Assembly: GCA_963766685.1 (NCBI GenBank)
Contig: CAVYBJ010000017.1
Location: 248,107 to 312,106, forward strand
Reading direction: 5' to 3'
Origin: an uncultured Chloroflexia bacterium
GTDB lineage: Bacteria > Chloroflexota > Limnocylindria > Limnocylindrales > CSP1-4
Length of the DNA: 64,000 nt
The notes beneath the pieces are model-generated. The model was not told where the DNA came from. It saw only the letters and a list, made by a program, of their open reading frames with translations, and searched no databases. Position 1 is the first letter of the stretch. Every line of letters starts with the position of its first letter. A program made the position numbers and the translations under genes. Positions 1 to 64,000 of the stretch are shown here, one piece after another.

Positions 1-886
1 GGGCCAGGGTGGCACCGATCGAGAGCTGGGCCAGCACGCTGACCAGCGTGTTCTGGAACAGGGCTCGCTCCCGGCGGAGGAACTGCCAGCCCTCGCGCAG
101 CTCGACGGTGAAGGCAGCCACGGCCCCGGCGACCCGCGGTCCGAGCTCCCGCGCAGCGGGGGGCACGATGATGCCGGCCAGCAGCACGGCACTGACCAGG
201 TAGGTCACCGAATCGACCCAGAAGGCCAGTGCCAGGTTGGTGCCGAGGAAGGCCACGAAGACGCCTGCCAGCGGGTAGCCGGCGATGTCGGCCACGGTCT
301 CGCCCGTCCAGATGGCGCCATTCGCCGGGGTGAGGTCCTCGCGACGCACGATGCGCGGCAAGATGGCCGCCTTGGCCGGCCGGAAGAACAGGCTGACGGT
401 GGTGACCCCGAAGACGAGCGGGTAGACCAGCACCACGTCGGCCTCCACGAGGAACGGGATGACGAGCACGAGGCCCGCACGGAGCAGGTCGCTCACGATC
501 ATCACCATCTTCTGGTCCCAGCGGTCGACGAACGTGCCCGCCAGCGGGCCGAGCAGGAGATTGGGCAGGGTGGCGGCCAGGAAGACCAGGCCGGTCTGAA
601 GGGCTGAGCCGGTGATCGAGAGCACCATGACGCCCAGCGCGATCTGGTGCAGGCGATCGCCGAACAGGCTGATGGTGCCCGCCAGCCAGAAGGCACTGAA
701 GCGCGCGTCCCTGGCGAGGCCGACGTACGGGTGCCTCCGGATCCGCTCGCCCAGGCTCGGCGCGACCGTCGGCCGGGCGACCCCGACGGCGGGCGCGGCA
801 TGCCCAGGATGCTCGAGGACAGCGGCGGTGCCGCGCCCGGGCCCCATCCCGCTTCCGAGCACGACCGGGCGATCCATGGCCATCGT
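1..886 (-). CDS. MFS transporter; its 3' end lies beyond the window start
   Basis: Minus-strand translation gives a typical MFS N-terminus (RHPYVGLARDARFSAFWLAGTISLFGDRLHQIALGVMVLS) followed by multiple TM helices. The ORF is open to position 1, so it is absent from the ORF track. A candidate ATG start lies at about 886. Confidence 0.6.
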
Positions 887-1632
887 CTCGCCTTGGCGCC
901 GGTCGGCTGGGTCGGTCCTCGGCTGACCGCGCCACAGGGACACCACTCCGGTGTTGGGGTCCGAGGAGCCCTTGGCCACGGCCGAGAAGAGGAACCAGGC
1001 GATGCCGGCGGCCAGCAGCACGTCACCCAGGCTGATCACGTTGGACAGGGAGAGGATGACGATGGGCAGGATGTCCCCGAGCGGACCGCCCGCGAGCAGG
1101 AACTCCAGGTTGAGCTGGTCCGGCAGGGCGACGTGGAACGTGGGTGACAGGTCGGCGGCCGTGAGCCCGGCCACCTGGACAGCCGGCACGAAGACCGGCA
1201 TGTACCCGCCGTTGAGCAGGATGGCCAGGCCGTTGGCCGCGACGCCCACCATCGCCAGCAGGAGGCCCGACTGCGAGCGGTTGAGCCACAGGGCTGCCAC
1301 GAGCATCCCGAACGCCGCGGCGAAGAGCGGGGCGCGGAGTTGATCCGCGATGCCCACGTCCTGCTCGATCAGCCATTGCGTTCCGAAGCGCAGGGCCAGC
1401 GCCAGCAGGATCAGGACTCCGTAGCGCAGCTGGATCGACAGGAGGTTGCGAAGCCGGCCGCCCGCCAGCAGGCCGAGAACCATGCCGAGGATGCCGGCGA
1501 TCAGGAGCAACGGATCACCCTCGCGCCCGATGGCGTCGTCGTGGCTTCGGCCAGAGCGATCGCCGTGAGACCCCGGAGGCGCTGCCGTCCCGGCCGACGC
1601 TCCGGCCAGTCGGTCGCGGGCAGGCCCGCCAT
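887..1632 (-). CDS. Polytopic membrane protein of unknown function, in frame with the downstream MFS ORF with no stop between them
   Basis: Minus-strand translation from an ATG at 1632 is hydrophobic and helix-rich (PLLLIAGILGMVLGLLAGG...LAAGIAWFLFSAVAKG). I found no stop codon before the MFS N-terminus. Confidence 0.4.
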
Positions 1633-1651
1633 CTGCTCGGAGGCCCCGAGT

Positions 1652-3419: not shown

Positions 3420-6400
3420 TCACGGGTCCTCGGCGACGAGGGTCTCGAACGGGGGCGCTCTGAGGCCCAACTCCCGTTTCATGAGATTGGCGTACTGACG
3501 GTAGTGATCCCCCGCTGCATCGACGGCACCCACGCGCGAAAGGGCCCTTATCAAGAAGGCGCGGAGGCTGAAGGCCAGCGGATCCAACTCAATCGCTCGC
3601 GCGAGCACGTCTATCGCAGTCTGAGTCCGCTCGGAGGCGAGCAGGGCTACTGCCGTGGCTTGAGAGAGGAGTAGGAATTGGGCATGGACCAGTGTTCGCC
3701 AATCCTCCGCCCAGTCCTCGTACTCGAACTCCGGCGCGAACCGTCCTCCGTATAGTCGCGCGATGCTGGGTCCAGCGCGCGCGACATCAACCGAGTTGAG
3801 CGCCTCGGTTGCCTGTCGTACGAAGGCGACGCTGTCGATCTGGACCAACTCCGGGTCTAGGTAGATCAGTTCGGAGTCGAGCGGGACGTAATCGGGGGTT
3901 GCATCTGGTCCAAGCCAAGGTGCGATGTTTCTGCGGACATAGTGCAGCGTCTGGTGCAGACTGTTGACCGCCGCGGCTGGCGATTGGTTGGGCCACAGTG
4001 CTTCCATGATTTGCTCTCTCGGGGCAGCCTGTTTCGGGCGCGTTACCAGGAAGAGCGGAAGAGCGAAGGCCTTACGCCGAGCGGCTGAAGCCGGCATCTC
4101 GATGCCTGACACTTCGTACGAGGTGCGACCGAGATCATGAATCCGGAGGGTCGGGCTGACCCTGCGAACCAGCGCTCTGCTGAGTGACGTCCGTCGCGCT
4201 GGCAGCGCTGTCTGTCGTTCCCAAGCGACCAGTGGTGACGCGTCCTCACGGGACCCAAAGTCGGAGAGGAGCCTGGCCGCCGCGGAAGCCACCACGCCGT
4301 TGCCTTCCTGCAGCTGACGGACGAGCACAGGCCTCCATCTCCCTGGGAAGAGGGCGACGGAGCGTCTCAAGGCAGGTGTAGTTGGGTCCAAGCAGGTGGA
4401 GTGACTTGCCAACGACGTCGGCCGACTCCAGCAGCGCGAGTGCCGAGATCTCCGAGCAGTCGTGAACCCACACGCGCCAAGCTCCGACTGTCCTGGCGTC
4501 GCTGAGGCTTCGATAATCCGAACGCGAGCCTCCCACCTCCACGCTTGCTGGGCATCAGATGCCCTGAGGGCATCCAGGATGTCCTGCGCCAAAGTCGGTC
4601 GACCGGTTAGGTACGACACGAGTGCCACCAAGAAGGCGCTGCGAGAGGCGCCGTCGAGCTCATCGAACCGCCCGACGTCCAGCTCGGACGTTCGTGCAAG
4701 GGCGTCATCAAAGCAACCTGCGGCGACCAGTCTGGACACCCGTGCGACGGCGGCTTGGTGCCGTGCCCCGACTTGGGCTGGCCCACTCGAAATGAGTCTG
4801 TGGAGCTTGTGCTCGAGGGACTCCGCACGCTGGAGATCGCCACAGATGGCCGACAGGTACGCACCGTCCGCAAGAACATCAGGATGTGCATTCGGTGCTG
4901 CCACCGCTTCCTGGGCAAGGGCGATCCCCTGCCCGTAGTCACCCGACTCCGCCAACGCGAGCGCTTGTGTGACCATCGCCGAAGGTCGGATGCTCGCGTC
5001 GACCGGCGAATTGCTCAGAGTCTGCTGCGCGCGCATGGAGAGCCCGACCGCCTCCCGATAGTCGCCCTGAGCCAGTGCAGCGGTCGCCGCGTTGTGGAGG
5101 GCGATTCCTGCGAAGTGAGTCAGCCCACCTCGAACCGAGTCCTCCGCAAGCAGGTCAAGGGACCTCCTCGCATCGCTTATCGATCCTCCTTGGCACGCAG
5201 TGCGCATCAGAGCCCACGCGTGGGCCAGTCGTTTGACGATGCTATCCGAGAGGGCGAGAGCCCCAAGTGCCTCAACCTCCTGCCATAGCAGCTCGCTGTG
5301 TCCTGCCATCTGATGGGCACTCGCTCGCGCGAGACTGAGCAGCCCGCGCTCGTCAGCGCTGAGGGCAGACTGGTCGATAGTGCTCAGAATGGCCAGTGCA
5401 TCGTTCGGGTCGACCCGCTGAAGTCAGGGCCCTCGCCTTGATCACTTCCACCGCGGGAGGGGGGAGGGTATCCGGCATGAGTTCGACGACTTCGACGGCC
5501 GCGCCCCACGCACCGGTCCCGAGTGCCTCGCTCGCGGCGGATCCCAGGACTCGCATGGCGTCTTGGGGCTGCTCTGCCAGTGCGTAGTGCTTGGCGGATG
5601 TCAGCCACGCCGAGGTTTCGGCCGCGCGTGCGATCGCACCGTGCATCGCCTTGATGCGCTCGGGCGGCGTCACGAGCACGAACTGATGCTCCAGGAACTC
5701 GCGGAACAGGGGATGCATGCGCACGCCGCCGCTCTCGACCTCCGGCTCACCCAGCAGGCCAAGTGAGCGTGCATCCTCCAGGTGAGTGGCCACCAGGTCC
5801 CGCCCGATGGGCTCGTCGGTCACCGACAGGCCGGCGGCGACGAGCTCCGGTGTGACCCGGTCGAGCAGGCATGCGTGAAGGAGGACGCGCTCCGTCAGGG
5901 GCGCCATCCTGGTCAGGACCTCCTCGGCAAGGAAGTCGTAGATGGGTCCCGTCGTCCCGCTCAATGCCTCGATGAAGGAGGCCACCTCGCCTGGCCGGCT
6001 GACGGCGATCGAGGCTGCCACGAGCTGAAGGCTGGCCGCCCAGCCTTGCGTCCGCTCGGCGACGACGTCGCAGGCCCGCTGGTCGAGCGGCCGCGAGTAC
6101 GCCGTCGCGAAGAGATCCTCGATCTCCGGCCGCGAGAACCGAAGGTCGTTGGTCGTCAGCTCCGACACGCGCCCCTGGGCGATCATCCGTCCGAGCGTGA
6201 GGTTCGGGCGGCCCCGTCCGGCGATCACGAACCGCATGCCAGCCGGTGCGCGCTCCAGCAGGCGACTCATGATCATGCGGACATCCGCGGAGTCGCTGAC
6301 CAGGTGGTAATCATCGAGGATGACCAGGATCTGACTGGTACCGACCGCGCCAAGGTCGGACAGGAACTGGGATAGGGCCACCTCCCTGGATGAACCCATG

Positions 6401-6852
6401 GATGCGACGTTGCGCAGGAGGGCCTCGGTAGGCCGGCCGAAGTCAGCGACCGCGCCGCGGATGCTGGCCACCAGGTAGCTGAGGAACGTGATCCAGTCGC
6501 CATCTGACCGCTCCAGGCGATACCAGACGCACGTCAGGTCCGAACGGCGGGCGAAGTCATTGAGCAGCGTCGACTTGCCGTAGCCAGCCTCCGCGTTGAT
6601 GAGGACCGCCCGCGCCTGCGTCTGGTGCTCAAGCCAGCCGATCAGCCGCGCGCGCGTCAGGACCAGGCGGCCTTCGACCGCAGGCGAGATCTTGCTGGCG
6701 ATGATGGCCAGGCCTGACGGATGGCCGACAGCGTCACCCGCGCGCTCCGTGGAGGCGGGCAGTTGCGGGGCCGTCTCCGGGCTGTTCTCAAGGGTGCTGT
6801 CTGGCGTCAGCGGCTGGCTCGGCATGGCCGCATCTTCAGGTGGCGTTCTCAT
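3420..6852 (-). CDS. Large STAND-type regulator: N-terminal P-loop NTPase (NB-ARC/MalT-like), a TPR-like region, then a C-terminal winged helix plus BTAD (SARP-type) domain. It is split by one frame break near 5355-5400
   Basis: The upstream ORF (5353..6852) has Walker A (AEAGYGKSTLL) and Walker B (ILVILDDYH) motifs. The downstream ORF (3420..5309) ends with ...LPLFLVTRPKQAAPREQIMEALWPNQSPAAAVNSLHQTLHYVRRNI, which is BTAD-like. The downstream frame stays open upstream of its ATG (..QRVDPNDALAILSTIDQSALSADERGLLSLARASAHQ-MAGH..) and overlaps the end of the upstream ORF. This is consistent with a single gene carrying a 1-nt indel. Confidence 0.7.
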
Positions 6853-6869
6853 CCGCGACTTAGGCGGGC

Positions 6870-6878: not shown

Positions 6879-6894
6879 GTTGGCTGGTGTGGTG

Positions 6895-12238: not shown

Positions 12239-12377
12239 AGCAGGACCGCGGTCATCGCCAAGCCCATCCTGACGACCGGGACGTCGGTGGCCCCCGGCCA
12301 CCATGCGAGAATGCGCCGCATGACTGAAGAGCGCAGGGGCTTCCGCGGATCAGACCCTCGAGGAGTTCAGCACCGCC

Positions 12378-12983
12378 TTGGCATCCGGGGAGCCGGTTCC
12401 GGGAGGCGGGAGCGCCGCCGCCGTCGCGGGCGCGCTCGCAGCCAGCCTGTGCAGCATGGTCGTCCGCCTCTCGCTCGATCGACCAGCCCTGCAGGCGCAC
12501 GCCAGCCTCCACGTAGAGGGGCTCGCCATCTCGGATGCGGCCCGCTCGCGCTTCCTCGATCTCGCGGATGAGGACGCCGCAGCCTACGCGGCCTATCGTG
12601 CGGCACGCCGCATGCCACACGACACGGACGAGCAGTCGGCGGCTCGCGATGCCGCCACTCGCCAGGCTGCCCTGGTGTCCGCTGAGGTACCCCTCAGAGT
12701 CGTTGATGCCTGCCGCCAGCAGGTGGCGATCGCGGAGCGTCTCGTGGGCCGGACGAACCGAAACGCTGCCAGCGATCTGGATGTGGCGGCTCTGCTGCTG
12801 GATGCGTCCGCGAGAGCTGCCGCCGCCAACGTGCTCGTCAATCTTCCTGCCATCGGTGATGAGGGCCTCGCATCCGGGATGCGCCTCCGCGTGGAGGAAG
12901 ACCTCCAGCAGGTCAGGGAGACAGCCTCCCGCGTCAGGGGTCTGGTCGCGACGGGCGGGCAGCGACCAGTGGAACCCGCATGA
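12378..12983 (+). CDS. Formiminotransferase-cyclodeaminase C-terminal-like (cyclodeaminase / methenyl-THF cyclohydrolase family) protein
   Basis: PVPGGGSAAAVAGALAASLCSMV motif of the FTCD_C family. TTG start; the frame is open from 12313. The stop overlaps the folD ATG (ATGA). Confidence 0.7.
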   Translation: MASGEPVPGGGSAAAVAGALAASLCSMVVRLSLDRPALQAHASLHVEGLAISDAARSRFLDLADEDAAAYAAYRAARRMPHDTDEQSAARDAATRQAALVSAEVPLRVVDACRQQVAIAERLVGRTNRNAASDLDVAALLLDASARAAAANVLVNLPAIGDEGLASGMRLRVEEDLQQVRETASRVRGLVATGGQRPVEPA

Positions 12984-23944: not shown

Positions 23945-24040
23945 ATGAAGAAACGGACACCTGCGCCGGTACCGGCCCAGGTCGCGTATCCAGGGTGCTC
24001 GCACCCGCAGCCGAAGTCACCTAAGGTCCGCCTGCCATGA
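23945..24040 (+). CDS. 31-codon upstream ORF (MKKRTPAPVPAQVAYPGCSHPQPKSPKVRLP) whose TGA overlaps the ATG of the giant gene
   Basis: An ATGA start/stop overlap, and 5' sequence ACGATGAAGAAACG(G/C)ACAC shared with the start of the 22465 gene. Confidence 0.3.
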   Translation: MKKRTPAPVPAQVAYPGCSHPQPKSPKVRLP

Positions 24041-42388: not shown

Positions 42389-42448
42389 GTCAGCGTGCGG
42401 ACCTGCGCCAGTCGACCACCGCCTGGCGTCTGGCTGCCGAGGCGCACG

Positions 42449-43889
42449 TCAGGCGGCATGCCGCAGACTCCCCGCGCGTCCGTCGATGGTGGTGGTCGAG
42501 GCGTGCCGCGGGCCAAGGTAGGTGGCCAGGCCGGCCTCCAGCGGCGTGAGCGTGCGAGGCATGGCTCGAAGCAGGGGTTCGACATCCACGGTCGCCGGCT
42601 GGTTGACGAAGTCCACCCCGTCCGGGCTGAGGGGCGGGTCGGGCAGGAAGCGCATCGGCCAGGCGGCCAGCTTGATGAGGGGCGCCGGCCCAGGGATGAC
42701 GGGCTTGTGGATGCCTGCCACGCTCATGGCTCGGCCGATGACCTCTCGCATGGACATGGTCTCTGGACCGCCGACCTCGAAGACCTGCTCGAGGGCAGCC
42801 TCCTGCTCCAGCGAATCGGCCGCCAGGCGAGCCACGTCCCCGACGTAGACCGGGGCCAGCTGCTGGCGACCCAGGTTCGTGAGCGGGACGAAGGGCAGGG
42901 TCCGCGCGAACCCCAGGAAGCGATTGAGCGAGACGTCGCCAGGGCCGTAGACCCAGGTCGGTCGCAGGATGGTCCAGGCCATCCCGGAGCCGCGCACGGC
43001 GTCCTCCGCGACCGCCTTGGCGCGGAACCAGTGGCGCTGGGCGTCATGACCAGCACCCGCACCCGAGAGGTAGACGACACGGCGCACGCCGGCCTGCCGG
43101 CCGGCCGCGACGAGCTGCTGCCGTGCCGCCGGCATCGACTTCCATGAAGGTGTAGCCCTTCCTGGGCTGCTCGATGGGCAGGCCCGGGAACGCCAGCGAG
43201 ATGACCATCTCATCCACGCCCTCGAGTGCGGCGCGCAGGGCGGCCGGGTTCCGGATGTCGGCAGGTCGCAGCTCGATGTCGTCCGGCAGCTGTCCGCGGG
43301 CGGCCTCGCCCCTCGAGGAGAGGACGACGACGTGGCGTCCGCGACGGCGGAGCTCACGGGCGATCTCGCTGCCCACGAAGCCTGTCCCACCCGCGACGGC
43401 GATGGTGCCTGGGCGCCCACTCGCCGGGTCGCCGGCCGGCTCGAAGATCTGGTCGATGGCGGTGGCGCGAAAGGCGAAGATGTGCTCGAGCTGCGAACGC
43501 ACGACGAGGCGATGGCCGAGCTCGCCGACCGGACCGAACGGCAGTTCGTACTCGACGTGATCGTCCATGCGGACTCCGTCCGTCACGGGCGTGAAGCGAT
43601 GATCGTGGACCCAGGACTTGTATGGGCCCTTGGCCTGCACGTCACGGAAGCGCAGGGGAGCCTCGACCGCGTCGATGTGCGTCTGCCAGTGGGCGGGGAT
43701 GCCGAAGAGCGGTCGCACCGTGTAGTCGATGACGGCCCCGGTCTCCGTCACCGGGTCGGGCGTGTGGATGTCGAAGCCCATCGAGCGGGGGGTGATGCGT
43801 CCGAGGTTACGGGCCCGGGAGAAGAAATCCCAGACTCGGTCCAGGTCTGCCTTCACGATATGACTGCTGTCGAGCGTGTGCTTGGTCAT
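42449..43889 (-). CDS. SRPBCC (cyclase/dehydrase) domain fused to an NAD(P)-binding NmrA/epimerase-like domain; one frame break near 43110
   Basis: N-terminal SRPBCC fold, then a Rossmann segment IAVAGGTGFVGSEIARELRRRGRHVVVLSSR, then a C-terminal NmrA-like part in the second frame. Confidence 0.6.
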
Positions 43890-46998: not shown

Positions 46999-48180
46999 TC
47001 ACGCCAGGCCGCGGCGCTTCTGGAAGGAGATCTGGAGGTCCTGGGTCATGCCGGTGCGGAAGCCCGCCTCGCTGATGGACAGGTAGTAGTCCCACATGCG
47101 GATGAAGCGGTCGTCGAAGCCCATGGCGCGCACCTCGCCGAGGTGTGCGAAGAAGCTCGTCCGCCACGTCTGCAGGGTGCGCGCGTAGCTGTCGCGGATG
47201 TCCTGCACGTCCGGTCACCAGCAGCTGCGTCCCCTCCAGCGAGGCCTCGATGGCCGCCAGGGAGGGCAGCACGCCGCCCGGGAAGATGTAGCGCTGGATC
47301 CAGTTGGCGCCCCGCAACTGGGCCTCGTACGCGTCATGCGGGAAGGTGATGACCTGCACGCTCATGCTGCCGCCGGTCTTCAGCGCCTTCCCGCAGGCGC
47401 TGAAGAAGTCGCGGTAGTACTCGGCCCCGACCGCCTCCAGCATCTCGATGGAGACGATGGCGTCGTAGGTGCCCTGCACGTCGCGGTAGTCGCGAAGCTG
47501 GATATCCACCTGGTCGCTGAGCCCGGCTGCCGCGATGCGCGCGCTGGCCAGCTCGTGCTGTGCCTGGCTGATGGTCAGGCTGGTCACTCGGCAGCCCAGC
47601 TCGCCGGCGGCATACAGCGCGAAGCCGCCCCAGCCGGTGCCGATCTCGAGCACGTGCTGCCCGCGCTCGAGGCCGGCCAGCTCGGCCATGCGGCGGTACT
47701 TGTTGCGCTGGGCGTCAGCCAGCGATTGCTCGCTCGATTCGAAGACGGCGCTCGAATAGGTCATCGTCTCGTCGAGCCAGAGCCGGTAGAAGTCGTTGCC
47801 CAGGTCATAGTGGGCCGTGATGTTGCGCCGTGCCCCAGCGCTTCGTGTTGCGGTTGCGCCGGTGGGCGATCGTCCGGCCGACCTGGGCCGGAAGGCGCCA
47901 CCAGCCCTTGGACAGGGCCAGGTCGGTCCGATTGGCCACCGCCAGGGAGATGAGCCCCACGAGGTCCGGACTCGACCAGAGGCCATCCATGTAGGCTTCA
48001 CCACCGCCGACCTCGCCGCCCAGGAGGAGCCGTCGGAGCGCATCCAGGTCGTGGATGTGCATCTCGCCGCGCAGCTCGGAGTCGCGGTCACCGAAGACTC
48101 GTCTCGAGCCATCAGGCAACCGTACCGTCAGGCAGCCGCGGCGGATGCGCGAGGCGGCGGCCAGGCCGATGCGCCCGGCA
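46999..48180 (-). CDS. cfa: Cyclopropane-fatty-acyl-phospholipid synthase family methyltransferase; 2 frame breaks near 47215 and 47815. The boundary with the upstream DUF1365 gene is approximate
   Basis: GEAYMDGLW, HYDLGNDFYRLWLD, VLEIGTGWGGFALYAA (SAM motif), and C-terminal ..ARTLQTWRTSF..RMWDYYLSISEAGF. Confidence 0.7.
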
Positions 48181-48980
48181 ACGGTCGTGAGCAGGGGGTC
48201 GAGTGGCCCGGCCAGGCGGTCCAGGCGCATCAGGTCGGTCAACGCGTCAACTCCGAGTGGCGGTGGAAACGGATGCCTCGGCGCCACAGTCGCCAGGCGT
48301 GCAGGTGGATGGCCGTGATCGTCTTGTGGGTCGCGAAGGGGATGCGAAGCAGGCACCGGGCCAGCGTGCGGTCGGTCAGACGCGCTCGCTGCAGCAACGA
48401 GGCTGGCGGTGAGCACGGGCTGTCCGTGCTCGGTCTCGGACATGGCGATGCGCAGGAGCCCGGGGTCGTCCTGGACGCGCACCGTGTAGCGAGCGTCCAT
48501 GTCGATGAACGGCGAGACGTAGAAGTCCTTGTCCATCTCGTCCACCCAGCCCGAGCCGCGCCGTTCCGGGCGCAGCGTGTAGAGACGTCGCTCGCCGTGC
48601 GTGTTGTGCACTTCGATGATGAAGGCGCGCAGGACACCCTCTCCGTCGCGACAGAGGTAGAAGCTCGCCGGGTTGAACTGGTACCCGAAGATGCGCGGCG
48701 TGGCGATGAAGGTGATGCGCCAGCCCTGGGGGTCGAAGCCTTCATCCCCGAGGTGCTGTCGGACCGAGACAGCCAGGTCAGCGGCAGCTGGGAGCCAGTG
48801 ATCCCGATCGCGGAAGGTGAGCACGTTGAGGCGGTTGCGGCTCAGGAGGCGCAACCTGCCGACCACGGCATCGATCTCGGACAGATCGAGCGCCAGGTAG
48901 AAGACGTCGTGCTCCAGCTCATACTCGATGGGTCGCAGACGCCGGTGCCGGACCTTGCCGTGCAGCAGGTGCGAGCGCAT
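48180..48980 (-). CDS. DUF1365 family protein
   Basis: MRSHLLHGKVRHRRLRPIEYELEHDVFYLALDLSEID N-terminus typical of DUF1365. I found no stop before the cfa N-terminal region in this frame. Confidence 0.6.
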
Positions 48981-49033
48981 GGCAGGCGACCGAGCCTGCC
49001 CACGACCCCTCGGCGCTCCGGGCTGGCTGGTCG

Positions 49034-50368
49034 TCATGGCGTTCGTGCTCCGACGACAGGGATCGCGCCGACCGGCGTGGCCTCGACCTCAGCGGCGCTC
49101 ACGGTCCTCTCCAGGATGCCCGCCGCGATCCGCTCGGCAGCCTCGAAGCCGGAGCGGCAGCCGTCCTCGTGGAAGCCATAACCGAGGTGCGCCCCGGCAT
49201 AGAGGGTGCGCCGGTGTCCCTGCAGTCGGCCCAGCGCGGTCTGGCCATCCAGCGTCCGGAAGGTGTACTTGGGGTGGCTCATGGCCCGCGTCACGATGAC
49301 CGTGGCGGGGTCCACGAGGTCGCCCGGGTTGACCGAGGTGCAATACGCGGTCTCGCCGGGCAGGTGCTGGAGGCGGTTCATGAAGTAGGTCATGGTGAGC
49401 TGTCGTCCAGGCCTGCGGCAGTCCACGGTGTCCACGTTCCAGGACTCCCGCGCCCCCTCGCGACGCGGCAGCATCGACTCGTCGGTGTGGAGGACCACGT
49501 CGTTCGTGGTGTACTCGAAAAGGCCGAGGGCGTCGCGCTCCTCGTCATCGGCATCGACCAGGAGGGCCAGGGTGACGTCAGCGTGGGTGGCCATGATGAC
49601 GCCGTCGAAGCGCCCGCTGGCACCGCTGGCGGTGACCACGGTCACGCCGTCGGGGGCGCGCAGGACCCTGACCACCGGGTCGCCAGCGCGGATGGAACCC
49701 TCGGGCAGTCGATCCTGGATGCGCTCCACGTAGGTCTTCGAGCCGCCCTTGATGGTGCGCCAGGGATGCCCCTTGCCGAACCCGATGAGACCGTGGTTGT
49801 CCAGGAAGCGCAGCAGGTAGTCGACGGGGAAGTCCATGATCTCCGCCGCGGAGGTCGACCAGACCGCCGAGACGACCGGAACCAGGAAGTGACTGCGGAA
49901 GGCGATGCCGTAGCCCCCCTCGTCAAGGAAGGCGCCCAGGGTCTCTCGCGTCCAGAGGTCCGCGTCGAGGCGCGCCCGCGCCACCCTGTAGAAGCGGCGG
50001 ATGTCGGCGATCATGCGCCAGTGGGAGGCGTGCAGCAGGCTGGACGGCTGCGCGAACATGCCACGCACTCCGAGCGAGCTGAACTCCAGGCCGCAGGCGC
50101 GACAGGTATGCCCCAGCGACATCTCCGTGGGCTGGGTCTCAACGCCCAGCTCGGCGAGCAGCCTGGTGAAGCGCGGATAGGTGGGCTCGTTGTAGACGAT
50201 GAAGCCGGTGTCCACGGCGAGGGGGCCGTCCGGCGTGGCCACGGCCACGGTCTTGACGTGTCCGCCTGGCTCCGGCTCGGCCTCGTAGAGCGCCACGCGG
50301 TGTTCCTCACGGAGGGCGTAGGCTGCCGACAGACCGCTGATGCCCGACCCGATGACCGCGATATCCAT
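49034..50368 (-). CDS. FAD-dependent oxidoreductase (amine-oxidase-like)
   Basis: [19 protein letters not shown] dinucleotide-binding motif. Conserved partner of DUF1365 and cfa. Confidence 0.8.
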
Positions 50369-51006: not shown

Positions 51007-51012
51007 CCGCTC

Positions 51013-52012
51013 ATGGACCTGCGCCAGCTCGCGGACGACGCGCTCGAGATCACGGTCGTGGGCAGCTTCAGCCGCCTCGGCTACCAGGCGCGGCGGCGCC
51101 TCTACGAGTGGCACGACCCGCTGCCCGGTACGCTGGCCGGCCGGACGGCACTGGTGACCGGGCCGACCTCCGGCCTGGGCCGCGCCACGGTCGACGCCCT
51201 GGCGTCGCTCGGCGCCCGCGTCGATCCTGGTCGGTCGCAGTCGCGAACGACTGTCGGCCACGGCCGCCGAACTGGCGCAACGGCATGGTGACGCGGAGCG
51301 CTTCCCGGTCGTGGTGGCTGACATGTCCTCCCTCGCCGGCGTGCGCGAGGCCGTGGCTGCGATCGAGGCCTCAGAGTCGCGCCTGGACATCCTCGTCGAC
51401 AGCGCCGGAGCCATCCACGCCACACGCACGGTCACCGAGGAAGGCCTGGAGGCCACCTTCGCCACGATGGTCGTGGGACCGTTCGTGCTCATCTCCGGGT
51501 TGCTGCCGATGCTGGAGCGGAGCGGCGACGGGCGTGTCATCACGGTCGTCTCTGGTGGCATGTACGGCCAGGCGCTGCCGCTGGACGACCTCGGGTTCGA
51601 GCGGGGCGATTTCAACGGTACGCTCGCCTATGCCCGGGCGAAGCGGGCGGCCACCGCCCTGACCCGCGAGTGGGGGCGACGCCTGCGCGGTCGCCCAGTG
51701 CGGGTCAACGCCATGCACCCGGGCTGGGCGGACACGCCCGGCCTGGCCGCATCGCTGCCTGGATTCCACGGCCTCATGGGTCCGCTCCTGAGGACGCCTG
51801 CCCAGGGCATCGACACGGTCACCTGGCTGGCCGCGGATCCGCGGGCCGGCCTCGCTGGCGGCCGGCTCTACCTTGACCGACGGTCGCGTCCCTTCGACCG
51901 GCTGCCCTCCACTCGCCTCTCGTCAGCACAGCGACGCTGGCTCTGGGATGAGGTCGTCCGGCTGGCCGGCATCCCCGACCCGATGCCCGACCTCAGCGGT
52001 CGGCGCGACTGA
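51013..52012 (+). CDS. Short-chain dehydrogenase/reductase; one frame break near 51230
   Basis: TALVTGPTSGLGRA Rossmann motif, YARAKRA catalytic motif, and PGWADTPGL in the second frame. Confidence 0.7.
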
Positions 52013-53048: not shown

Positions 53049-53137
53049 CGGTCCGATTGTCCCACGGGCGCGACCTCACGAGCCGGCCGGGCGAGCCTGC
53101 ACGGTCCCCATCGCTTGCCCCGGATACCCTGTCCGAC

Positions 53138-54734
53138 ATGAGCATCGACATCCCCGCCTGGGTCAGGGACGCCGTCTTCTACCAGGTCTTCCCGGACCGC
53201 CTGGCCCGCAGCGGCCGTGTCCCGGCTCCCGGCGAGCTGGAGCCCTGGGAGGTGCCGCCGACCCGACACGGCTTCAAGGGCGGCGACCTCTACGGCGTCG
53301 TCGCCCACCTCGACCGCCTGCACAGCCTCGGCATCACGGCGCTGTACCTGAACCCCGTGTTCACCTCCGCCTCCAACCACCGCTATCACACCGACGACTA
53401 CTTCCACGTGGACCCCCTGCTGGGCGGCGACGAGGCCCTGCGCGAGTTGCTCGACGAGGCCCACGCCCGCGGCATGCGCGTCATCCTCGACGGCGTCTTC
53501 AACCACAGCGGTCGCGGCTTCTGGCCGTTCCATCACGTGCTGGAGAACGGCGCCCGTTCGCCCTATCGCGGCTGGTTCCATCTCGACCCCGGCGTCCTCG
53601 CCGGGGTGCGTCCGCTCGTCGCGTTCCCGTCGGCGGACGAGCAGGCGGCCATCGACGGACTGCGGGCGCAGGGCGTGCCGAGTGGCGCCGCCTCGCGGAC
53701 CGTCCTTGGCTACGAGGCCTGGTGGGACCTGGCGGCCCTTCCCAAGCTCGACCTCGACGAGCCGCACCTGCGGGCCCTCATCCTCGATGTCGCCGAGCAC
53801 TGGCTTCGCTTCGGGATCGACGGCTGGCGCCTGGACGTGGCCGAGGAGATCGGCATCGACTTCTGGCGCGAGTTCCGGGCGCGGGTGCGCACCGTCAAGC
53901 CGGACGCCTACCTGGTGGCAGAGATCTGGAGCGTGAAGCCGGACTGGCTGGCGGGTGACACCTTCGACGCCCTCATGGACTACCCGCTGACGGAGGCCAT
54001 CCTGGGGTTCGCGGCCCAGCACCGCCTGGCGACCGGCATCGACCTGCCCTGGGAGTACCAGGGCAAGCTCGCCCCCCTGGACGGCGCGACGCTCTGGTCT
54101 CGCATCGACCGGCTCGTCCAGGTCTACGGGCCGGAGCGCCTGTCGGCACAGCTCAACCTCCTGGGCAGCCACGACACGCCGCGCCTCCGGACACTGTGTG
54201 GTGGCGACCTCGACGCCGTGCGCCTGGCCATGCTGCTGCAGATGACGCTGCCCGGGGCGCCCTGCGTCTACTACGGCGACGAGATCGGCATGGAAGGCCT
54301 GCATGGATCCCGATTGCCGGCGTGCCTTGCCGGCCGACCCGGCCGCCTGGGAGCGGGAGCCTGCCGACTGGCTGGCCGACCTGGCAGCACGACGGCATGC
54401 CAGCCGGGCGCTGCGTGACGGCGAGCTGACGCTGCTGTGGGCCGAGGGGGCGGCACTGGCCTACCTGCGCCACGACGAGGAGGACGCGTACGTCTGCATC
54501 CTCGATGCCGCGGACGAGCCGCTCGCCTGTGACCTCCGGCTCCCGCTCAGCGTCGACTCCGCGGACCTCGTGCCGCTCCGCAGCGAGCGCCCGGACGGCC
54601 GCGCACAGCTCGTGGGCGACCGCGTGCTGCACGTGGAGCTCCCGGCTCGCCACGGCGCCATCGTGCGGCTCCAGCCGGCCGGACGCCCGCCCTTCGGCTC
54701 CCTCCCGCAGGCCGAACCTATACTCGCCCCGTGA
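53138..54734 (+). CDS. GH13 alpha-amylase-family glycoside hydrolase; one frame break near 54300
   Basis: GFKGGDLYGVVAHLDRLHSLGITALYLNPVF, GMRVILDGVFNHS, GWRLDVAEEI, YYGDEIGMEG, then the C-terminal domain in a second frame. Confidence 0.75.
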
Positions 54735-55101: not shown

Positions 55102-55179
55102 GCCCCCATCGTCTAGAGGCCCAGGACGCCACCCTTTCAAGGTGGAGATCGACCGGTTCGAATCCGGTTGGGGGTACCA
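55102..55179 (+). tRNA. tRNA-Glu (anticodon TTC)
   Basis: Cloverleaf: acceptor stem GCCCCCA/TGGGGGT with G1-U72, D arm TCTAGAGGCCCAGGAC, anticodon stem-loop CCACC-CTTTCAA-GGTGG, T arm GGTTCGAATCC, and an encoded CCA. Confidence 0.8.
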
Positions 55180-55637: not shown

Positions 55638-55699
55638 CCGCGGCCGCGCTGGCCACCGGAGCGGCGTGGCGCCGACCGGCGTGGCGCAGTCCACGTCGG

Positions 55700-56463
55700 T
55701 CAGGCCCGATCTCTCGGCCGTCGCGCCACGCCCCAAGGCGGACGTCGTCGCCAACGCCAGCCTGGTGAGCCCGCGACCTGCTGACGCCTGCCCTGGCCAG
55801 GCTCACGTTGCGCCCCGACCATGGCGGCCTGTCCTTCGTGGCAGGCCAGTACGTGCAGGTCCGGACGATGGACGCGCGGATCCCGCCGCGCCCGTACTCG
55901 ATCGCCTCAGCACCCGGTGCCCGGGATCTCGAGCTCCTGGTCGCTCGTGTCGACGGAGGGTCGCTCTCGCCACGGCTCTTCGAGCTGCCGACCGGCTCAC
56001 GTCTCTTCGTGGGCACGCCTGCCGGTCGGTTCCGACTGGAGCGCGACGACGGTCGGGATCACCTGCTGGTCGCGACCGGCAGCGGCATCGCGCCACTGCT
56101 CTCCATGGCAGCCGAGCTCGGCGCTCGCCCGCGGCCCCCACGGACGATCGCGCTCCACGGCGTGCGGATCGAAGAGGAGCTTGCCGGTCGCGCCGTTCTC
56201 GAACGGCTCGACGGCACGTGGCTGCGGTATCGGCCCAGCCTGTCGCGACCGCGGGACCCCTCGCGCTGGCGCGGGCTGGCAGGCCGGGTCGACCGGCACC
56301 TCGCGGATCTGCTCGTCAGCCACGGCTTTGCCGCCGACCGCACCGTCGCCTACCTGTGCGGCAACCCCTCGATGGTCGCTGCCTGCGAGGCACGCCTGTT
56401 GGCACGGGCTTCCCCGCTGCCAGCATCCACACGGAGGCGTTCACGATCGACGCCACGGACTGA
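55700..56463 (+). CDS. Ferredoxin-NADP+ reductase-like FAD/NAD(P)-binding oxidoreductase; frame breaks near 55760 and 56400, start approximate
   Basis: RPYSIAS (RxYS FAD motif), LLVATGSGIAPLLSM, AYLCGNPSMV; the C-terminal ..GFPAASIHTEAFT is in another frame. Confidence 0.6.
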
Positions 56464-57421
56464 CGCGCTGGCGATCAGGCGGCCGAGCGTGAACTCCGTC
56501 GTCGACTCGAGCTCCGGCTCGGGCCGTCCGGTCGTGGTGGGGCTCCGGCGGCCCGACGGGCTCGCTGGCGGGCGGCGGTGCGTCACGCACGGAGCGGCGC
56601 CCCCGGATGACCCAGGCGCAGATGGCCAGCGAGAGACCCACGATGGCGACCTGTGCCACGAGCACGGCGGGTCCCACGATGCCGAGCAGGCTGAGCACGT
56701 TCTCGGCGTTGTAGACGAGGATCATGCCGCCCACCAGGCCCCCCAGCACCTTGTGGTCCAGCCGGCTCACGAGCCAGGCGGCGATGGGTGCCGCGAAGAG
56801 GCCGCCGATCAGCAGCAGCGCGGTGGCGCCCCATTCGATGGCCTCGCCTCCCAGGGCGGCCAGGAAGCCGAGCGTGGCCCCGATGGCCACGATGAACTCG
56901 GACATGCTGACCGTGCCGATGACCTGGTTGGGGCTCATGCGGTTGGAGGCCATGAGCGTGGAGGTGGTGACCGGCCCCCATCCGCCACCGCCGACCGAAT
57001 CGATGAAGCCGCCGATCAGGCCGAGCGGGCCGAGCACCCTCGTGGTCGGGTCGTGGAACCGGATGGCCGCCTGGCGACCGAACACGGTCCGCAGCAGCAC
57101 GACCAGTCCGAGGACGGCCAGGATGACGCTGACCCACGGAGCGGCCACATCGGCTGCGATGTAGCTGATGGCCAGGGCTCCCGCGAAGGCGCCGATCGTG
57201 CCGGGGATGGCGAGCATGAAGACGGCCCGCCAGTGGACGTTCCCGAAGCGCCAGTGCGCGGTCCCGGACATGATCCCGGTGCCGATCTTGGCGACGTGGA
57301 TGGTGGCCGAGGCGACGGCCGGGGCGAAGCCGATGGCCGCCAGCATCGTCGCCGATGTGACGCCGTAGCCCATGCCCAGCGACCCGTCGACCAGCTGGGC
57401 GACGAACCCGATGAGCAGCAC
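56441..57421 (-). CDS. TauE/SafE (DUF81) family membrane exporter
   Basis: Two tandem 4-TM halves with GxGGG motifs (FIDSVGGGGWGPV). Confidence 0.75.
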   Translation of the reverse strand: MLLIGFVAQLVDGSLGMGYGVTSATMLAAIGFAPAVASATIHVAKIGTGIMSGTAHWRFGNVHWRAVFMLAIPGTIGAFAGALAISYIAADVAAPWVSVILAVLGLVVLLRTVFGRQAAIRFHDPTTRVLGPLGLIGGFIDSVGGGGWGPVTTSTLMASNRMSPNQVIGTVSMSEFIVAIGATLGFLAALGGEAIEWGATALLLIGGLFAAPIAAWLVSRLDHKVLGGLVGGMILVYNAENVLSLLGIVGPAVLVAQVAIVGLSLAICAWVIRGRRSVRDAPPPASEPVGPPEPHHDRTARAGARVDDGVHARPPDRQRVSPWRRS

Positions 57422-57544
57422 GAGCAGGATGTAGCCGAGAATCCACGCCTCGCCTCGGTATTCCCGGTATTTCCTACCTGAGAGACAGAGAATATAGGTG
57501 ATGACGCGCGGCCCTGCTCAGCCGAGCCGCAGGCCGCGCCCGGT

Positions 57545-58774: not shown

Positions 58775-59127
58775 GCCGGATCATGGGCATCCGGATCCCG
58801 ACCGTCTTCTCCGAGAATGACGCCAAGCGCTGCGCCGGCTGTGGAGAGCCCATCGAGGGGACACCCTTCCGGGTCTCCATCCTGGACAACGTGGCGAGGG
58901 AGACGGCACCCAGCTGGGCTGAGCGGGCACCCCTGAACCCCGGACCGCACCAGTTCCACGCCGACCCGGCGCACTTCCAGGACTGGGCCCGGCGGCGCGG
59001 ACACCTCCTCTGCTCGCTCTCCGGCGTCAGGGAGCTGATGCGGCCCGTGCCGCTGCCCGTCGATCCTCCGGCCTGGGGCCTCTGCGACGGCAACCACCGC
59101 GAGGATCACGTCTTCGAGCCGGCCTGA
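58775..59127 (+). CDS. Hypothetical protein
   Basis: ORF from MGIRIPTVFSENDAKRCAGCGEP; no recognised family. Confidence 0.4.
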
Positions 59128-60211: not shown

Positions 60212-60213
60212 AC

Positions 60214-61160
60214 CGCTCGACCACCACCGGCGCTGCGCTGATCGTCATCGCCGCGGTCGGCTACGGCACGCTGGGGGTGCTCTCGCGCTTCGCCACGGAG
60301 GTGGGCATCTCCACCATCACCTTCGTGACCTGGCGCGCCCTGCTCGGGGCGCTCATCCTCATCGTCTCGGTGGCCCTGGCCCTTGGCTTCGGCCTCATCC
60401 GCTCGGTGCGTTTCGCGGACGTGCCACCGAAGCACTGGCTCCAGATCAGCACCGTGGCGATCCTCAACGTCGTCATCAACCTGGCCGTCTTCACGGGCTT
60501 CGAGTACGCCAGCATCGCGCTCGTGCTCATCTGCTTCTACACCTACCCGGTCATCGTGGCCGTGGCTGCCACCCGCGTCTACCACGAACCGCTCACGGGG
60601 CTTCGAGTGGGGGCGCTGGCGCTGGCCTCGGCCGGCCTGGTGCTTGTCGTCGTGGTCCCCATGCTCGGCCAGGGCGATGCCGACGTGTCTGCCATCGGAC
60701 TGCTCCTGGGTCTGCTGGCAGCGGTCGCCCAGGCCGTGCACTCGCTCATCGCCGGGCGCGGCTACTCGTCGCTCCCCGCCCCCCAGGCAGCCGCGGCTCT
60801 CTCGGTCATCCAGGCCATCGGGTTCGTTGGCGTCGCGCTCCTGGCCGGCGCAGCCTCGACGCTGACCGAGCCCTTCGCCGTGGAAGGCGCCTGGGTCTGG
60901 ATCGATCCTGGCGGCCACCATCGGCCTGGCGATCCCGACCGCAGCGGTCCTGGCCGGCTACCGTCGCCTTGGTCCCACGCGGGCCTCCATCCTCATGCTG
61001 CTCGAGCCGGTGGTCGCGGTCCTGCTGGCCGCCGTGCTGCTCGCCGAGCAGCCGGCCCTCGTGCAGCTCCTCGGTGGGGCCCTCGTGCTGGCCGGCAGCC
61101 TGCTGGCCCAGGTGCATCGCCAGCCGGCTGGCAGCCGGCCCCGCAGCCGGCCTGAGGGAG
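60214..61160 (+). CDS. EamA/DMT-family transporter; one frame break near 60905, 3' end approximate
   Basis: Two EamA-like halves. The second half (ILAATIGLAIPTAAVLAGYRRLGPTRASILMLLEPVVAVLLAAVLLAEQP) is in a +1 frame. Confidence 0.6.
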
Positions 61161-61303: not shown

Positions 61304-62182
61304 ATGCGCGTTCGCAAGGCAGTCTTTCCGGCCGCAGGCTGGGGCACTCGCTTCCTGCCCGCCACCAAGGCGCAGCCCAAGGAGATGCTGCCGCTGGTCG
61401 ACAAGCCGGTCATCCAGTACGCGGTCGAGGAGGCGGTGGCGGCCGGCATCGAGCAGGTCATCATCGTCACGAGCAGCCAGAAGCGCGCCATCGAGGACCA
61501 CTTCGACCACAGCTTCGAGCTGGAATCGCTCCTCGAGGCGCGCGGCGACATCGAGATGCTGCGCCGGGTGCGCCGCATCGGCGACATGGCCCAGGTGAGC
61601 TACGTGCGCCAGAAGGAGCAGCTCGGCCTCGGGCATGCCGTGCTCATGGCCAAGGAGCTGGTCGGGCACGAGCCCTTCGCGGTCATCCTGTCGGACGACG
61701 TCGTGACCGGTCCGCGATCCTGCATCGGCCAGCTGGTGGACGCCTACCACCGCACGGGCGGCTCCACGCTCGCGGTCATGCCGGTGCCGCACGAGGAGAC
61801 CAGCCGCTACGGCGTGGTCGACGTGGACCCGGCCTGGGACGGTGACGACGCCCGGCTCACCCGCATCCGAGGTGTCGTCGAGAAGCCGGCTCCGGACGAC
61901 GCCCCGAGCAACCTGGCCATCATCGGCCGTTACGTCCTGACCCCCAAGATCTTCGCCAAGCTCGAGCAGACGCCGGCCGGGTCCGGCGGCGAGATCCAGC
62001 TCACCGACGCCATCGAGGCCCTCATGCAGGAGCAGGAGGTCTTCGCCTATGCGTTCGAGGGGACTCGCCACGATGCGGGCACCACGATGGGCTGGCTGAA
62101 GGCCTCGCTGGAGCTGGCGCTCGACCGCGAGGAGTTCGCTCCGGAGCTCCGCGCGTACCTGGCGGGGCTCGACCTGCGGTGA
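61304..62182 (+). CDS. galU: UTP--glucose-1-phosphate uridylyltransferase
   Basis: AAGWGTRFLPATKAQPKEMLPLVDKPVIQY and full-length GalU similarity. Confidence 0.9.
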   Translation: MRVRKAVFPAAGWGTRFLPATKAQPKEMLPLVDKPVIQYAVEEAVAAGIEQVIIVTSSQKRAIEDHFDHSFELESLLEARGDIEMLRRVRRIGDMAQVSYVRQKEQLGLGHAVLMAKELVGHEPFAVILSDDVVTGPRSCIGQLVDAYHRTGGSTLAVMPVPHEETSRYGVVDVDPAWDGDDARLTRIRGVVEKPAPDDAPSNLAIIGRYVLTPKIFAKLEQTPAGSGGEIQLTDAIEALMQEQEVFAYAFEGTRHDAGTTMGWLKASLELALDREEFAPELRAYLAGLDLR

Positions 62183-62230
62183 CACCGGCCGAGCTCATCG
62201 GTCCCGCAAGGCCTCCGGGGGGCAGGCAGC

Positions 62231-64000
62231 GTGGCTGAGCTCGGCCGGGTCCTGGCCGGCCGCTACCGGCTCGACCAGGTCCTCGGTCAGGGTGGCATGG
62301 CCACCATCTTCCGCGCCACGGACAGCAAGCTCGGCCGCGAGGTGGCCGTCAAGGTCCTGCGCCCGGAGTTCGGCAGTGACGCCCAGTTCGTGGAGCGCTT
62401 CCGCCACGAGGCCCAGGCCGCCGCGTCCCTGAGCCACCCCAACATCGTGCAGGTCTACGACTTCGGGACCGACCCGGCCGGGCCCTACATCGTCATGGAG
62501 CAGGTGGCCGGCGGCGACCTTTCCGTGGCTCTCGGCGAGCACGGAGCGCTGCCCCCTACCGCCGTCGCGCGCATCGGCCAGCAGGTCGCCGACGCTCTCG
62601 GCGGCCGCGCATGTCCGGGGCCTCATCCACCGCGACATCAAGCCCAGCAACATCCTGCTCTCGCCGGACGGCCGGGTGCAGGTGGCCGACTTCGGGATCG
62701 CCCACGTCGCCGCTCGCTCGCCCGTCACGTCGACCGGCATCACGCTCGGCAGCGTCCTCTACTTCAGCCCGGAGCAGGCTCGCGGCGACACGGCCAGCCC
62801 GGCCTCGGACGTCTACTCCCTGGGTCTCGTGATGTACGAGCTGCTCACCGGCCAGCGGCCCTTCTCCGGCGACTCGCCGGCGGCGGTCGCGGTGGCACGC
62901 CTGAGCGGCAGCGTGCCCTCGCCGATGCTCGTGCGGCCGGAGACGCCGCCACCGCTGGACGCCATCGTGCGCTGGTGCCTGGCCGTCGACCCGGCAGCGC
63001 GCCCAACGGCATCCGAGCTCTCACTGGCGCTGGCGCGCTTCGTCGCCGATCCCTCGGGTGCCGCCGCACTGGCAGCGGTGGGCATGACGGCCGGCCCCAG
63101 CGCCCCGGGGCCCGTTCCCGGGAGCGTGGCGCCCGCCCGGCTCAGCCAGCGGCCGGGGCATCGTCAAGGGGCTGCGGATGCCGAGCACGCCGGTTCGGGG
63201 CCCCTGGCCTGGGCAGCCGCCGGTCTGGGGCTGCTCGTCATCGTGGCCTCGGGGATCCTGCTCTTCATCCTCTTCAGCGGCATCGGGGACAGCGCCGCCT
63301 CGCCCAGCCCCAGCCCAACGGCCGAGGTGGCCATGGTCCGGACCCCACAGCTGGTCGGTCGCAGCGAAGAGGACGCCGTCACCGTCGCACGCCGGCGCGG
63401 CCTGGTGCTGGAGATCGACTACGTCGGATTCCGCGAGCGAGGTCGGATCGGTCATCGACCAGCTGCCCGGACCCGGCGTCCAGGTTCCCTCCGGCACATC
63501 GATCCAGGTGACCGTGGGCACGCAGGTGGAGACCGTCGTCGTGCCCGACGTGCACGGCTTCAAGGAGGCCACCGCCGTCGCCGAGCTGGAGGCGGCGGGC
63601 CTGAAGGCGGGCATGCGCTACAGCGCGGACGACCTGCTGCCTGAGGGGTACGTCGTCGCCACCGATCCCCGTCCAGGTGAGTCGCTGACGCGAGGCTCTG
63701 ACGTCGACTACGTGGTATCCACGGGTCGCCGCACGGGCGCCGCGACCAGGCCGGCCGGTCACTCCCCGCCCCGTGGTGACCCTCCGGCCGAGCGCCACCT
63801 TCACGCCCCTACCCGCTCAGGACGTCGTGCTCGTGGGCGACTTCCAGTGCCTGAAACTGGCCGAGGCGCGAAGGCACATCGAGGAGGCCGGCCTGCTCGT
63901 CGGGGCCATCATCCCAAGCGAGCCGACACCACTGGACGACTGGTTCGTCCACGACCAGCTGCCCAAGCCAGGCGAGATGGTGCCCGTGGGCTCCAACGTG
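62231..64000 (+). CDS. PknB-like Ser/Thr protein kinase with a TM segment and extracellular PASTA domains; runs off the window end, with several frame breaks
   Basis: [15 protein letters not shown] (Gly loop and Lys), [20 protein letters not shown]; TM segment [15 protein letters not shown]; PASTA-like segments follow. Confidence 0.8.

Follow-up and report, generated by a model that had tools for sequence, protein, structure and literature searches.

Single-base frame breaks across a 64-kb stretch of an uncultured Chloroflexia genome very probably arise from long-read consensus calling

A stretch of 64,000 nucleotides from an uncultured Chloroflexia bacterium (contig CAVYBJ010000017.1 of assembly GCA_963766685.1), which in its full length we call the window, raises the question of why so many of its genes, including argS for the arginine-tRNA ligase, are interrupted by single-nucleotide changes of reading frame. 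Such breaks could be the marks of gene loss or errors of sequencing and assembly. An initial annotation of this DNA had reported pervasive single-nucleotide frame breaks, and these were recovered here by Viterbi segmentation, by Pfam domains that run across the junctions, and by nucleotide and protein alignments. In our view, the breaks are very probably consensus-calling artefacts of long-read metagenome assembly and not the result of gene loss.

Results

Extent and nature of the frame breaks

We mapped 42 frame-shifting single-base events in the window, spread over 16 protein genes (Table 1). One extra base in a tRNA-Glu gene and about seven intergenic insertions come on top of these, giving about 0.8 events per kb overall. 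With the exception of a giant PASTA-repeat gene, all the events in coding DNA are 1-nt insertions, and they are private to the window when polarised with two to five relatives, apart from those at 37767 and 40574. No 1-nt deletion private to the window was found in coding DNA outside the PASTA gene in the multiple alignments with relatives, and no nonsense mutations, larger deletions or insertions of insertion sequence (IS) elements were seen in the affected genes, the lesions being almost purely +1.

The number of at least 25 affected genes given initially is thus too high as a count of genes (16 protein genes and one tRNA gene), whereas it holds as a count of breaks, of which there are about 42 in coding DNA. 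The breaks that had been listed in the STAND regulator, the peptidase (three), the PASTA gene (13 here), argS, the second DUF4397 gene, the GT4 glycosyltransferase, the SRPBCC-NmrA fusion, cfa (two), the short-chain dehydrogenase, the GH13 gene, EamA and PknB (three) were all found again. Others were not on that list, namely those in FTCD_C (12346), the DUF1365 gene (48396), TauE (57440) and tRNA-Glu (55151), and the roughly seven intergenic ones. A small His-rich gene (58783-59127), also described as broken, has no private indel relative to its orthologues in two related loci (L083 and L084). The four sequence contexts quoted as examples could all be located, and three of them mark the inserted base itself; the peptidase base, at 23180, lies 10 nt from the place quoted.

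The window has a GC content of about 70%, and long open reading frames (ORFs) are abundant in all six frames, so that a list of ORFs is by itself uninformative. We used a seven-state Viterbi segmentation with a codon-usage model trained on ten confident ORFs, and the segments of the same strand were stitched and then scanned against Pfam and NCBIfam. Many of the frame switches on the same strand simply mark the passage from one gene to the next, as in rplI/dinB, folD/fhs and an ABC transporter operon. Many other junctions fall inside single Pfam domains (DUF4397, Glyco_transf_4/Glycos_transf_1, NAD_binding_10/Epimerase, DUF1365, CMAS, adh_short, Alpha-amylase, EamA and Pkinase), and these switches are genuine frame breaks. 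A whole-locus tblastn comparison of the relatives' ORFs with the window gave too much noise, as all frames are open at a GC content of 70%, and it was dropped in favour of nucleotide multiple alignments and per-gene checks.

The relatives were found first by a scan with the intact photolyase, taking one genome per species, which identified Chloroflexota metagenome-assembled genomes (MAGs) named MFDxxxxx.bin.x.x, with 84-88% protein identity and conserved gene order; further loci came from protein searches with DinB, GalU and ArgRS and from contig look-ups. They include L081 (94.7% nucleotide identity to window positions 516-21726), L086 (95.1% to positions 22070-43723) and L083, from the same genome as L001 (91-92.5% in three blocks between 52410 and 64000), and L084, L085 and L082/L087 served as additional comparison loci. 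These relatives are Microflora Danica long-read assemblies, built from Nanopore data only with Flye (--meta --nano-hq) and one Medaka round (PMC12313526). The authors of that catalogue checked for Nanopore-associated errors, and low coding density is described for its lower-coverage MAGs (PMC12313526).

Ten columns in which the window has an extra base relative to L086 (25431, 25696, 25716, 25734, 34535, 41461, 41680, 41913, 42363 and 43012) were rejected as L086-side deletions or repeat-register effects. This judgement rests on the PASTA unit alignment, the in-frame translation of the window and the outgroup patterns, with 34535 as the single column polarised individually.

Broken genes restored by removal of one base

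The argS gene seems intact initially, as TIGR00456 covers residues 41-564 in one open frame and an ArgRS of the PDB aligns contiguously. The first start codon of this main frame is an in-frame GTG at residue 45, and the N-terminus, VLSVRTRVRALVEAALAQ, is found in the neighbouring frame, the switch lying exactly at cagTgccatc (33659-33668, minus strand). The inserted base parts codons 1-28 from the remaining 537 (break at codon 28/29) and is private to the window relative to L086 and L087. The raw gene aligns in two frames, one giving residues 1-29 and the other residues 28-565, and once corrected it matches residues 1-565 at 98.4%. The claim that an essential aminoacyl-tRNA synthetase gene is broken by a 1-nt insertion is thereby borne out.

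The tRNA-Glu gene is 78 nt long in the window versus 77 nt in four relatives, and its extra G is absent from 80 of 80 metagenome contigs of the Joint Genome Institute (JGI) with identical flanks.

A similar restoration is observed for other genes. The peptidase, which in its raw form matches the 393-residue L086 orthologue in three frames, becomes one high-scoring segment pair (HSP) over residues 1-393 (94%); the stitched peptidase was not recognised by Pfam, and its DUF8575 assignment was taken from the L086 and L087 gene calls. Single HSPs are likewise obtained after correction for GT4 (residues 7-759), the short-chain dehydrogenase (1-332) and the GH13 gene (1-530), while EamA goes from two frames to one (residues 1-289) and PknB from four frame pieces to one frame (1-590). 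The gains are smaller for breaks close to a start codon: the TauE match grows from residues 3-316 to 1-316, and the corrected FTCD_C match covers residues 7-220, with three more N-terminal residues than before. In FTCD_C the break is also seen as a tblastn frame change at 12346-12348, and the L081 gene call is a protein of 220 amino acids with PF04961. The correction of the second DUF4397 gene produces an open frame of 473 codons.

The STAND regulator is a single gene split by the insertion at 5410, as indicated by its Pfam and NCBIfam matches and by an 821-residue ORF of L082 that runs across the break, with which three-frame translations and local alignments agree. Its other three insertions add up to +3 and leave the ORF open, with about 36 codons scrambled, and removal of base 5410 leaves an open frame of 1,157 codons.

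For the ferredoxin-NADP reductase-type gene (FNR), two breaks had been proposed. The one near 55778 is supported by the Viterbi frame switch, by three-frame translation, by a FAD_binding_6 match that begins upstream of the earliest start codon in that frame, and by PDB alignments that require about 20 residues upstream of the break, and we regard it as a probable break on these grounds. The second is unproven and indistinguishable from what may be an ordinary boundary between a ferredoxin gene and FNR, since the upstream ferredoxin ORF (55338-55637) closes with its own stop codon.

Gene order departs from that of the closest relatives right after tRNA-Glu (window 55102-56604; L083 2696-5208; L084 2680-5198), where the ferredoxin and the FNR-type reductase are present in the window, two unrelated genes in L083, and an rve_3 transposase in L084. 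This region looks like a small variable island beside the tRNA gene.

Table 1. Genes and intergenic sites of the window with inserted or otherwise frame-shifting bases. Positions are those of the window; domains named cross the junctions.
Feature	Position	Strand	Event(s)	Domains and comparison
Intergenic base	1644		insertion	Extra relative to L081; L082 also lacks it
STAND NTPase-TPR-wHTH/BTAD regulator (one gene, ~1,130 amino acids)	3420..6852	-	insertions 5410, 4498, 4472, 4390	
FTCD_C (cyclodeaminase-like)	12320..12983	+	insertion 12346, near codon 9	Extra relative to L081; L082 also lacks it
Base between folD and fhs	13883		insertion	Extra relative to L081; L082 also lacks it
HExxH DUF8575 peptidase	22633..23817	+	insertions 22657, 22870, 23180	Extra relative to L086
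PASTA-repeat gene (~2,640 amino acids)	24037..31976	+	13 frame-shifting events: 9 insertions, 4 deletions	
argS (arginine-tRNA ligase)	32051..33749	-	one inserted base, 33665 (coding-strand T, cagTgccatc)	
Second DUF4397 gene	36725..37976	+	insertions 36881, 37285, 37294, 37767	DUF4397
Base upstream of fasciclin-domain gene (intergenic or leader)	38016		inserted C in a C-run	Private relative to L001, L003, L086
GT4 glycosyltransferase (orthologue of 759 amino acids)	40147..42431	-	insertions 41007, 40875, 40761, 40574	Glyco_transf_4, Glycos_transf_1
Bases at or upstream of the GT4 start, listed as intergenic	42398, 42446		insertions	Private to the window
SRPBCC-NmrA/epimerase fusion	42449..43889	-	insertion 43121	NAD_binding_10, Epimerase; private relative to four relatives
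cfa (cyclopropane-fatty-acyl-phospholipid synthase)	46999..48250	-	insertions 47838, 47213	CMAS; private to the window; tblastn frame changes
DUF1365 gene	48251..49049	-	insertion 48396	DUF1365 (profile positions 1-234 of 235); private to the window
Short-chain dehydrogenase	51010..52012	+	insertion 51223 (gtcGatcc)	adh_short; private to the window; L111 lacks the base
GH13 alpha-amylase-family gene	53135..54716	+	insertion 54301	Alpha-amylase; L111 lacks the base
tRNA-Glu(UUC)	55102..55179	+	extra G 55151, between anticodon arm and T arm	ARAGORN, Rfam; private to the window
Ferredoxin-NADP reductase-type gene (FNR)	55666..56401	+	insertion near 55778 (AGCC[C]GCGAC)	
TauE/SafE permease	56522..57445	-	insertion 57440, codon 2-3	Private relative to L083, L084; L111 lacks the base
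Intergenic base beside a 5-nt indel, upstream of the small His-rich gene	58679		insertion	Alignment
EamA transporter	60277..61157	+	insertion 60904 (atcGatcc)	Private relative to L083, L084, L085
Base between EamA and galU	61184		insertion	Alignment
PknB-type Ser/Thr kinase with PASTA domains, running off the window	62231..64000	+	insertions 62600, 63429, 63757	Pkinase; private to the window

The giant PASTA-repeat gene

The PASTA-repeat gene is the only one in which deletions accompany the insertions, and its events were placed near 25764, 25973, 26370, 26956, 27162, 27559, 27914, 28706, 28844, 29161, 29446, 30251 and 30995. The gene contains tandem arrays of 204 nt (3 units), 198 nt (17 units) and 405 nt (3.6 units), whose unit lengths vary (197, 198 or 199 nt, and 404, 405 or 406 nt), which gives the 13 frame switches. 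Four units have the identical sequence GTCAG[C]CTAC, a hybrid in which two variants of the unit, GTC-AGC-TAC and GTC-GCC-TAC, are merged. Aligned with the L087 protein the gene shows a single break, at 30995, and a window deletion suggested at 31122 was rejected as an artefact of the nucleotide alignment, as it has no counterpart in that protein alignment.

The C-terminal end of the PASTA protein is a DUF8575-like domain with a degenerate HExxH motif (AHAARE), and the adjoining stand-alone DUF8575 paralogue, the peptidase gene of Table 1, retains HEYAH. Judged by these motifs, the pair may consist of an active peptidase and an inactive copy placed on a cell-wall-binding scaffold.

Sequence error or real mutation

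Several lines of evidence bear on whether the indels exist in the organism. The removal of single bases restores colinearity, as argS, the peptidase, GT4, the short-chain dehydrogenase, GH13, EamA and PknB all go from two to four frame pieces to one end-to-end HSP, and no in-frame stops were found in the corrected genes. In the restored frame, 62-71% of the substitutions downstream of the breaks are at third codon positions, versus 62-72% in other coding sequence, a test of low power for very recent events. In addition, a JGI contig from independent data (L111, 87% identity) lacks the extra base of the window at four of the four sites that it covers (51223, 54301, 55151 and 57440).

In a genome that is losing genes, the indispensable ones would be spared, the lesions would be of mixed kinds, and constraint would be relaxed downstream of the breaks. 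In the window, argS, PknB and tRNA-Glu carry insertions, the events outside the repeat gene are solely +1, and the third-position shares are alike on both sides of the comparison. What is observed is a set of indels that are private to the assembly and whose removal restores the genes, in company with sister assemblies that carry indel sets of their own. The initial interpretation as insertion-type sequencing or assembly errors, and not pseudogenisation, is thus upheld by the private insertions, the restored orthologues and the unrelaxed third-position bias.

It could be argued that the indels are real and record either a recent massive pseudogenisation or an insertion-biased mutator, since the deposited sequence contains the breaks beyond question, the closest relative, L086, shares those at 37767 and 40574, and a truncated ArgRS is conceivable, codon 45 being an in-frame GTG that lies after the break at codon 28. 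However, such a history would have to produce almost only +1 changes without nonsense mutations, larger deletions or IS elements, leave the codon-position bias downstream unrelaxed, hit a tRNA gene, and place about 7 of 50 events between genes. It would also have to account for the different private set in each sister assembly, for the JGI contigs without the extra bases, and for a pattern described below, in which both alleles of a variable site stand in tandem, which has no known mutational basis. We consider this explanation highly improbable.

The best candidates for real mutations are the insertions at 37767 and 40574, each of which is matched by an L086 insertion in the identical column of the alignment. 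The other relatives have a different base there, and the two may be either recurrent artefacts or inherited mutations. The proposal that some or all of the insertions are real, as an insertion-biased recent burst of frameshifts in a free-living, soil Limnocylindria-like lineage, would draw on these two sites above all, and in our estimate it is extremely improbable.

Functional recoding, by programmed ribosomal frameshifting, transcriptional slippage or phase-variable contingency loci, has as its sole point that the coding events outside the repeats all shift the frame in one direction (+1). Against it, the sites have no slippery motif in common, orthologues keep their frame at each of them and no site is conserved, the only event in a homopolymer of at least 6 (38016) is intergenic, and 42 events in 16 unrelated genes far exceed any known recoding system. 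The probability of this explanation is close to nil.

Lesions of the same kind in sister assemblies

The same lesions are observed in the related contigs. L086 has 39 private 1-nt insertions and 7 deletions over 9.7 kb, L087 has 6 and 5 over 9.7 kb, and L085 has about 30 and 6 over about 8 kb; L002 has 11-16 insertions and 2 deletions in the region 34-55 kb, and L081 about 7 and about 3 over 21 kb. The cleanest relative, L001/L083, has the same gene order, with no private insertion in a strict count of isolated columns and 1 deletion over 34-43.7 kb and three blocks in 52.4-64 kb; under looser criteria five insertions were listed for it at 34-55 kb, which were not individually checked. The density of private insertions in the relatives is accordingly contig-specific and ranges between 0 and about 4 per kb. 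The gene calls of these loci are fragmented as well: L082 has lexA (8100-8745) and fhs (13308-15003) split, L085 has a truncated GH13 gene and no call for pknB (4139-12725), and the DUF4397 and PASTA genes are in pieces in L086 (5775-7953 and 12519-19594). Since the sister contigs have private insertions and fragmented gene calls of their own, the phenomenon belongs to the type of data, with an intensity that varies from contig to contig.

L002 (CAVQQK010000007.1) is labelled as an 'uncultured beta proteobacterium', yet in nucleotide sequence it is 86% identical to the Chloroflexota loci, whose gene order it shares, and the label is probably wrong.

Origin of the inserted bases

The inserted bases are associated with sites at which related strains differ. 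In a list of 41 window insertions, which includes one L086-side deletion (34535) and three unpolarised sites (35774, 38738 and 38757), 28 adjoin a column at which at least one relative departs from the window (14.2 expected), and in 17 the inserted base is the relative's allele at the adjacent variable column (4.7 expected, a value of 17 being reached in 0 of 3000 simulations). The window reads AAGC where relatives have AAG or AGC, CGGC where they have CGG or CGC, and CACT where they have CAC or CGT. The same signature, in which both alleles are present, is found in 28 of the 39 L086 events (5.7 expected), and it was not found in the insertions of L085 and L002.

These observations point to consensus calling across a mixture of strains or of repeat units as the source of about 40% of the events. 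Reads from co-occurring related strains would differ at single-nucleotide polymorphisms (SNPs), and so would those that stem from different units of the tandem repeat in the PASTA gene. The consensus step would then sometimes keep both alternative bases side by side, by which a substitution would become a 1-nt insertion, and a smaller share of the events would be ordinary indel errors linked to low coverage or to motifs. Strains about 90% and about 95% identical to the window do occur together, for example in sample ERZ25039596 (contigs 123 and 124), and we infer a strain mixture of this kind, with a second strain present in the sample that yielded the window, as the probable mechanism.

Homopolymer errors were rejected as the cause, as the extension of an adjacent base is no commoner than chance in the window (17 of 36 extra bases in the comparison with L086, versus 19.8 expected) and rarer than chance in L086.

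The contexts TCGA, ATCG and GATC account for 16 of the 101 private insertions pooled from five assemblies, versus 5.4 expected, the motif having been chosen post hoc. This excess of about threefold, taken for TCGA/ATCG/GATC/CGAT, may reflect a motif- or methylation-linked bias in basecalling or polishing; as the motif set was picked after viewing the data, we keep the idea as a lead only. A G inserted into TC^A to give TCGA is seen in the window at 40574, 51223, 55151 and 60904, often beside GATC, and the pattern is also present at the 54301 site of L002 and in L086 near window position 38100.

A simpler account would be plain insertion noise at the level of the reads, from low coverage and a single polishing round, with no role for polymorphism. 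The insertion contexts of the window, taken alone, are near random for homopolymer adjacency and for the creation of CpG, the insertions of L085 and L002 are unlinked to polymorphic columns, and lower coverage has been tied to errors (PMC12313526). Noise of this type would not be expected to copy the alternative allele of an adjacent site in 17 of the 41 window insertions and 28 of the 39 in L086, to place one identical hybrid insertion in four PASTA repeat units, to recur in L086 at two sites and to have a neighbouring insertion in L002 at 54301, or to favour TCGA, ATCG and GATC, even allowing for the post hoc choice of that motif. We regard read noise without polymorphism as rather unlikely. 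The early suggestion of insertion-prone reads with incomplete polishing is therefore retained as regards the origin in error, and not as regards plain random noise, as many events resemble collapsed polymorphism.

Other features of the window

An FMN (flavin mononucleotide) riboswitch (RF00050, 74.9 bits; 18747-18895, minus strand) lies directly upstream of the ABC transporter operon at 15936-18642, which encodes an ATPase, a permease and an NMT1-type binding protein. This arrangement suggests an uptake system that would be regulated by riboflavin or FMN. In another region, a MerR regulator with a B12-binding domain, similar to CarH (34626-35513), is found about 8.5 kb upstream of a group of genes for photolyase, SDR/DUF2867, cfa, DUF1365 and amine oxidase (44032-50380), and by its gene content this looks like a neighbourhood for the response to light or ultraviolet (UV) radiation.

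Discussion

The reading of the frame breaks as consensus-calling artefacts is a strong one that we infer from sequence comparisons, in which the relatives also provide the probable sequencing platform of the window. Some points weigh against it. The platform is deduced from these relatives only. The list of 41 sites on which the signature was counted contains one wrongly polarised site (34535) besides the three unpolarised ones, and the signature accounts for only about 40% of the events and is absent from L085 and L002, which indicates more than one error process. The events are also unevenly distributed, the first 22 kb having about a third of the density of the remainder, even with the PASTA gene left out of the count (0.33 private insertions per kb, from 7 events, at 516-21726 versus about 1 per kb at 22070-64000). 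Finally, the recurrence of the insertions at 37767 and 40574 in L086 is what inherited real mutations could also give; both sites are polymorphic among the relatives, which is where the artefact model would place them.

From a biological point of view there is nothing new in these breaks, and the finding is an ordinary one, with relevance for annotation. Taken at face value, the sequence would have 16 genes annotated as pseudogenes or split ORFs, including those for the arginyl-tRNA synthetase, the PknB kinase and the GH13 enzyme, and if uncorrected the breaks would distort completeness estimates, pangenome comparisons and claims of gene loss for this uncultured lineage. The same problem is present in several deposited relatives, one of which (L002) is a GTDB species representative. 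The presence of both alleles in tandem, together with the rule that the orthologue is regained once a single base is deleted, offers a simple reference-guided route to flag and repair such sites.

The window shares with decaying, pseudogene-rich genomes, such as those of Mycobacterium leprae and recently host-restricted symbionts, a large number of frameshifted genes. Genomes of that kind also have nonsense mutations, deletions, IS elements, relaxed constraint, a deletion bias and intact essential genes, and the window differs from them in that none of these other traits is seen. A closer resemblance is to the indel errors of Nanopore-only MAGs assembled with Flye and Medaka (PMC9262707, PMC12313526), with which the window has in common single-base indels that fragment ORFs and a density that varies among contigs, and its nearest relatives stem from precisely this type of data and have the same lesions. 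Published descriptions of Nanopore errors lay stress on homopolymer-associated indels, along with lower coverage and low GC (PMC9262707, PMC12313526). The window is unlike this description, with its GC content of 70%, no excess in homopolymers, events that are nearly all insertions, and many of them beside SNP columns. The collapse of strain heterogeneity or of repeat copies in consensus calling is a known class of assembly artefact, and the window resembles it in that the inserted base is often the alternative allele of a neighbouring column and in that identical hybrids are found across tandem units.

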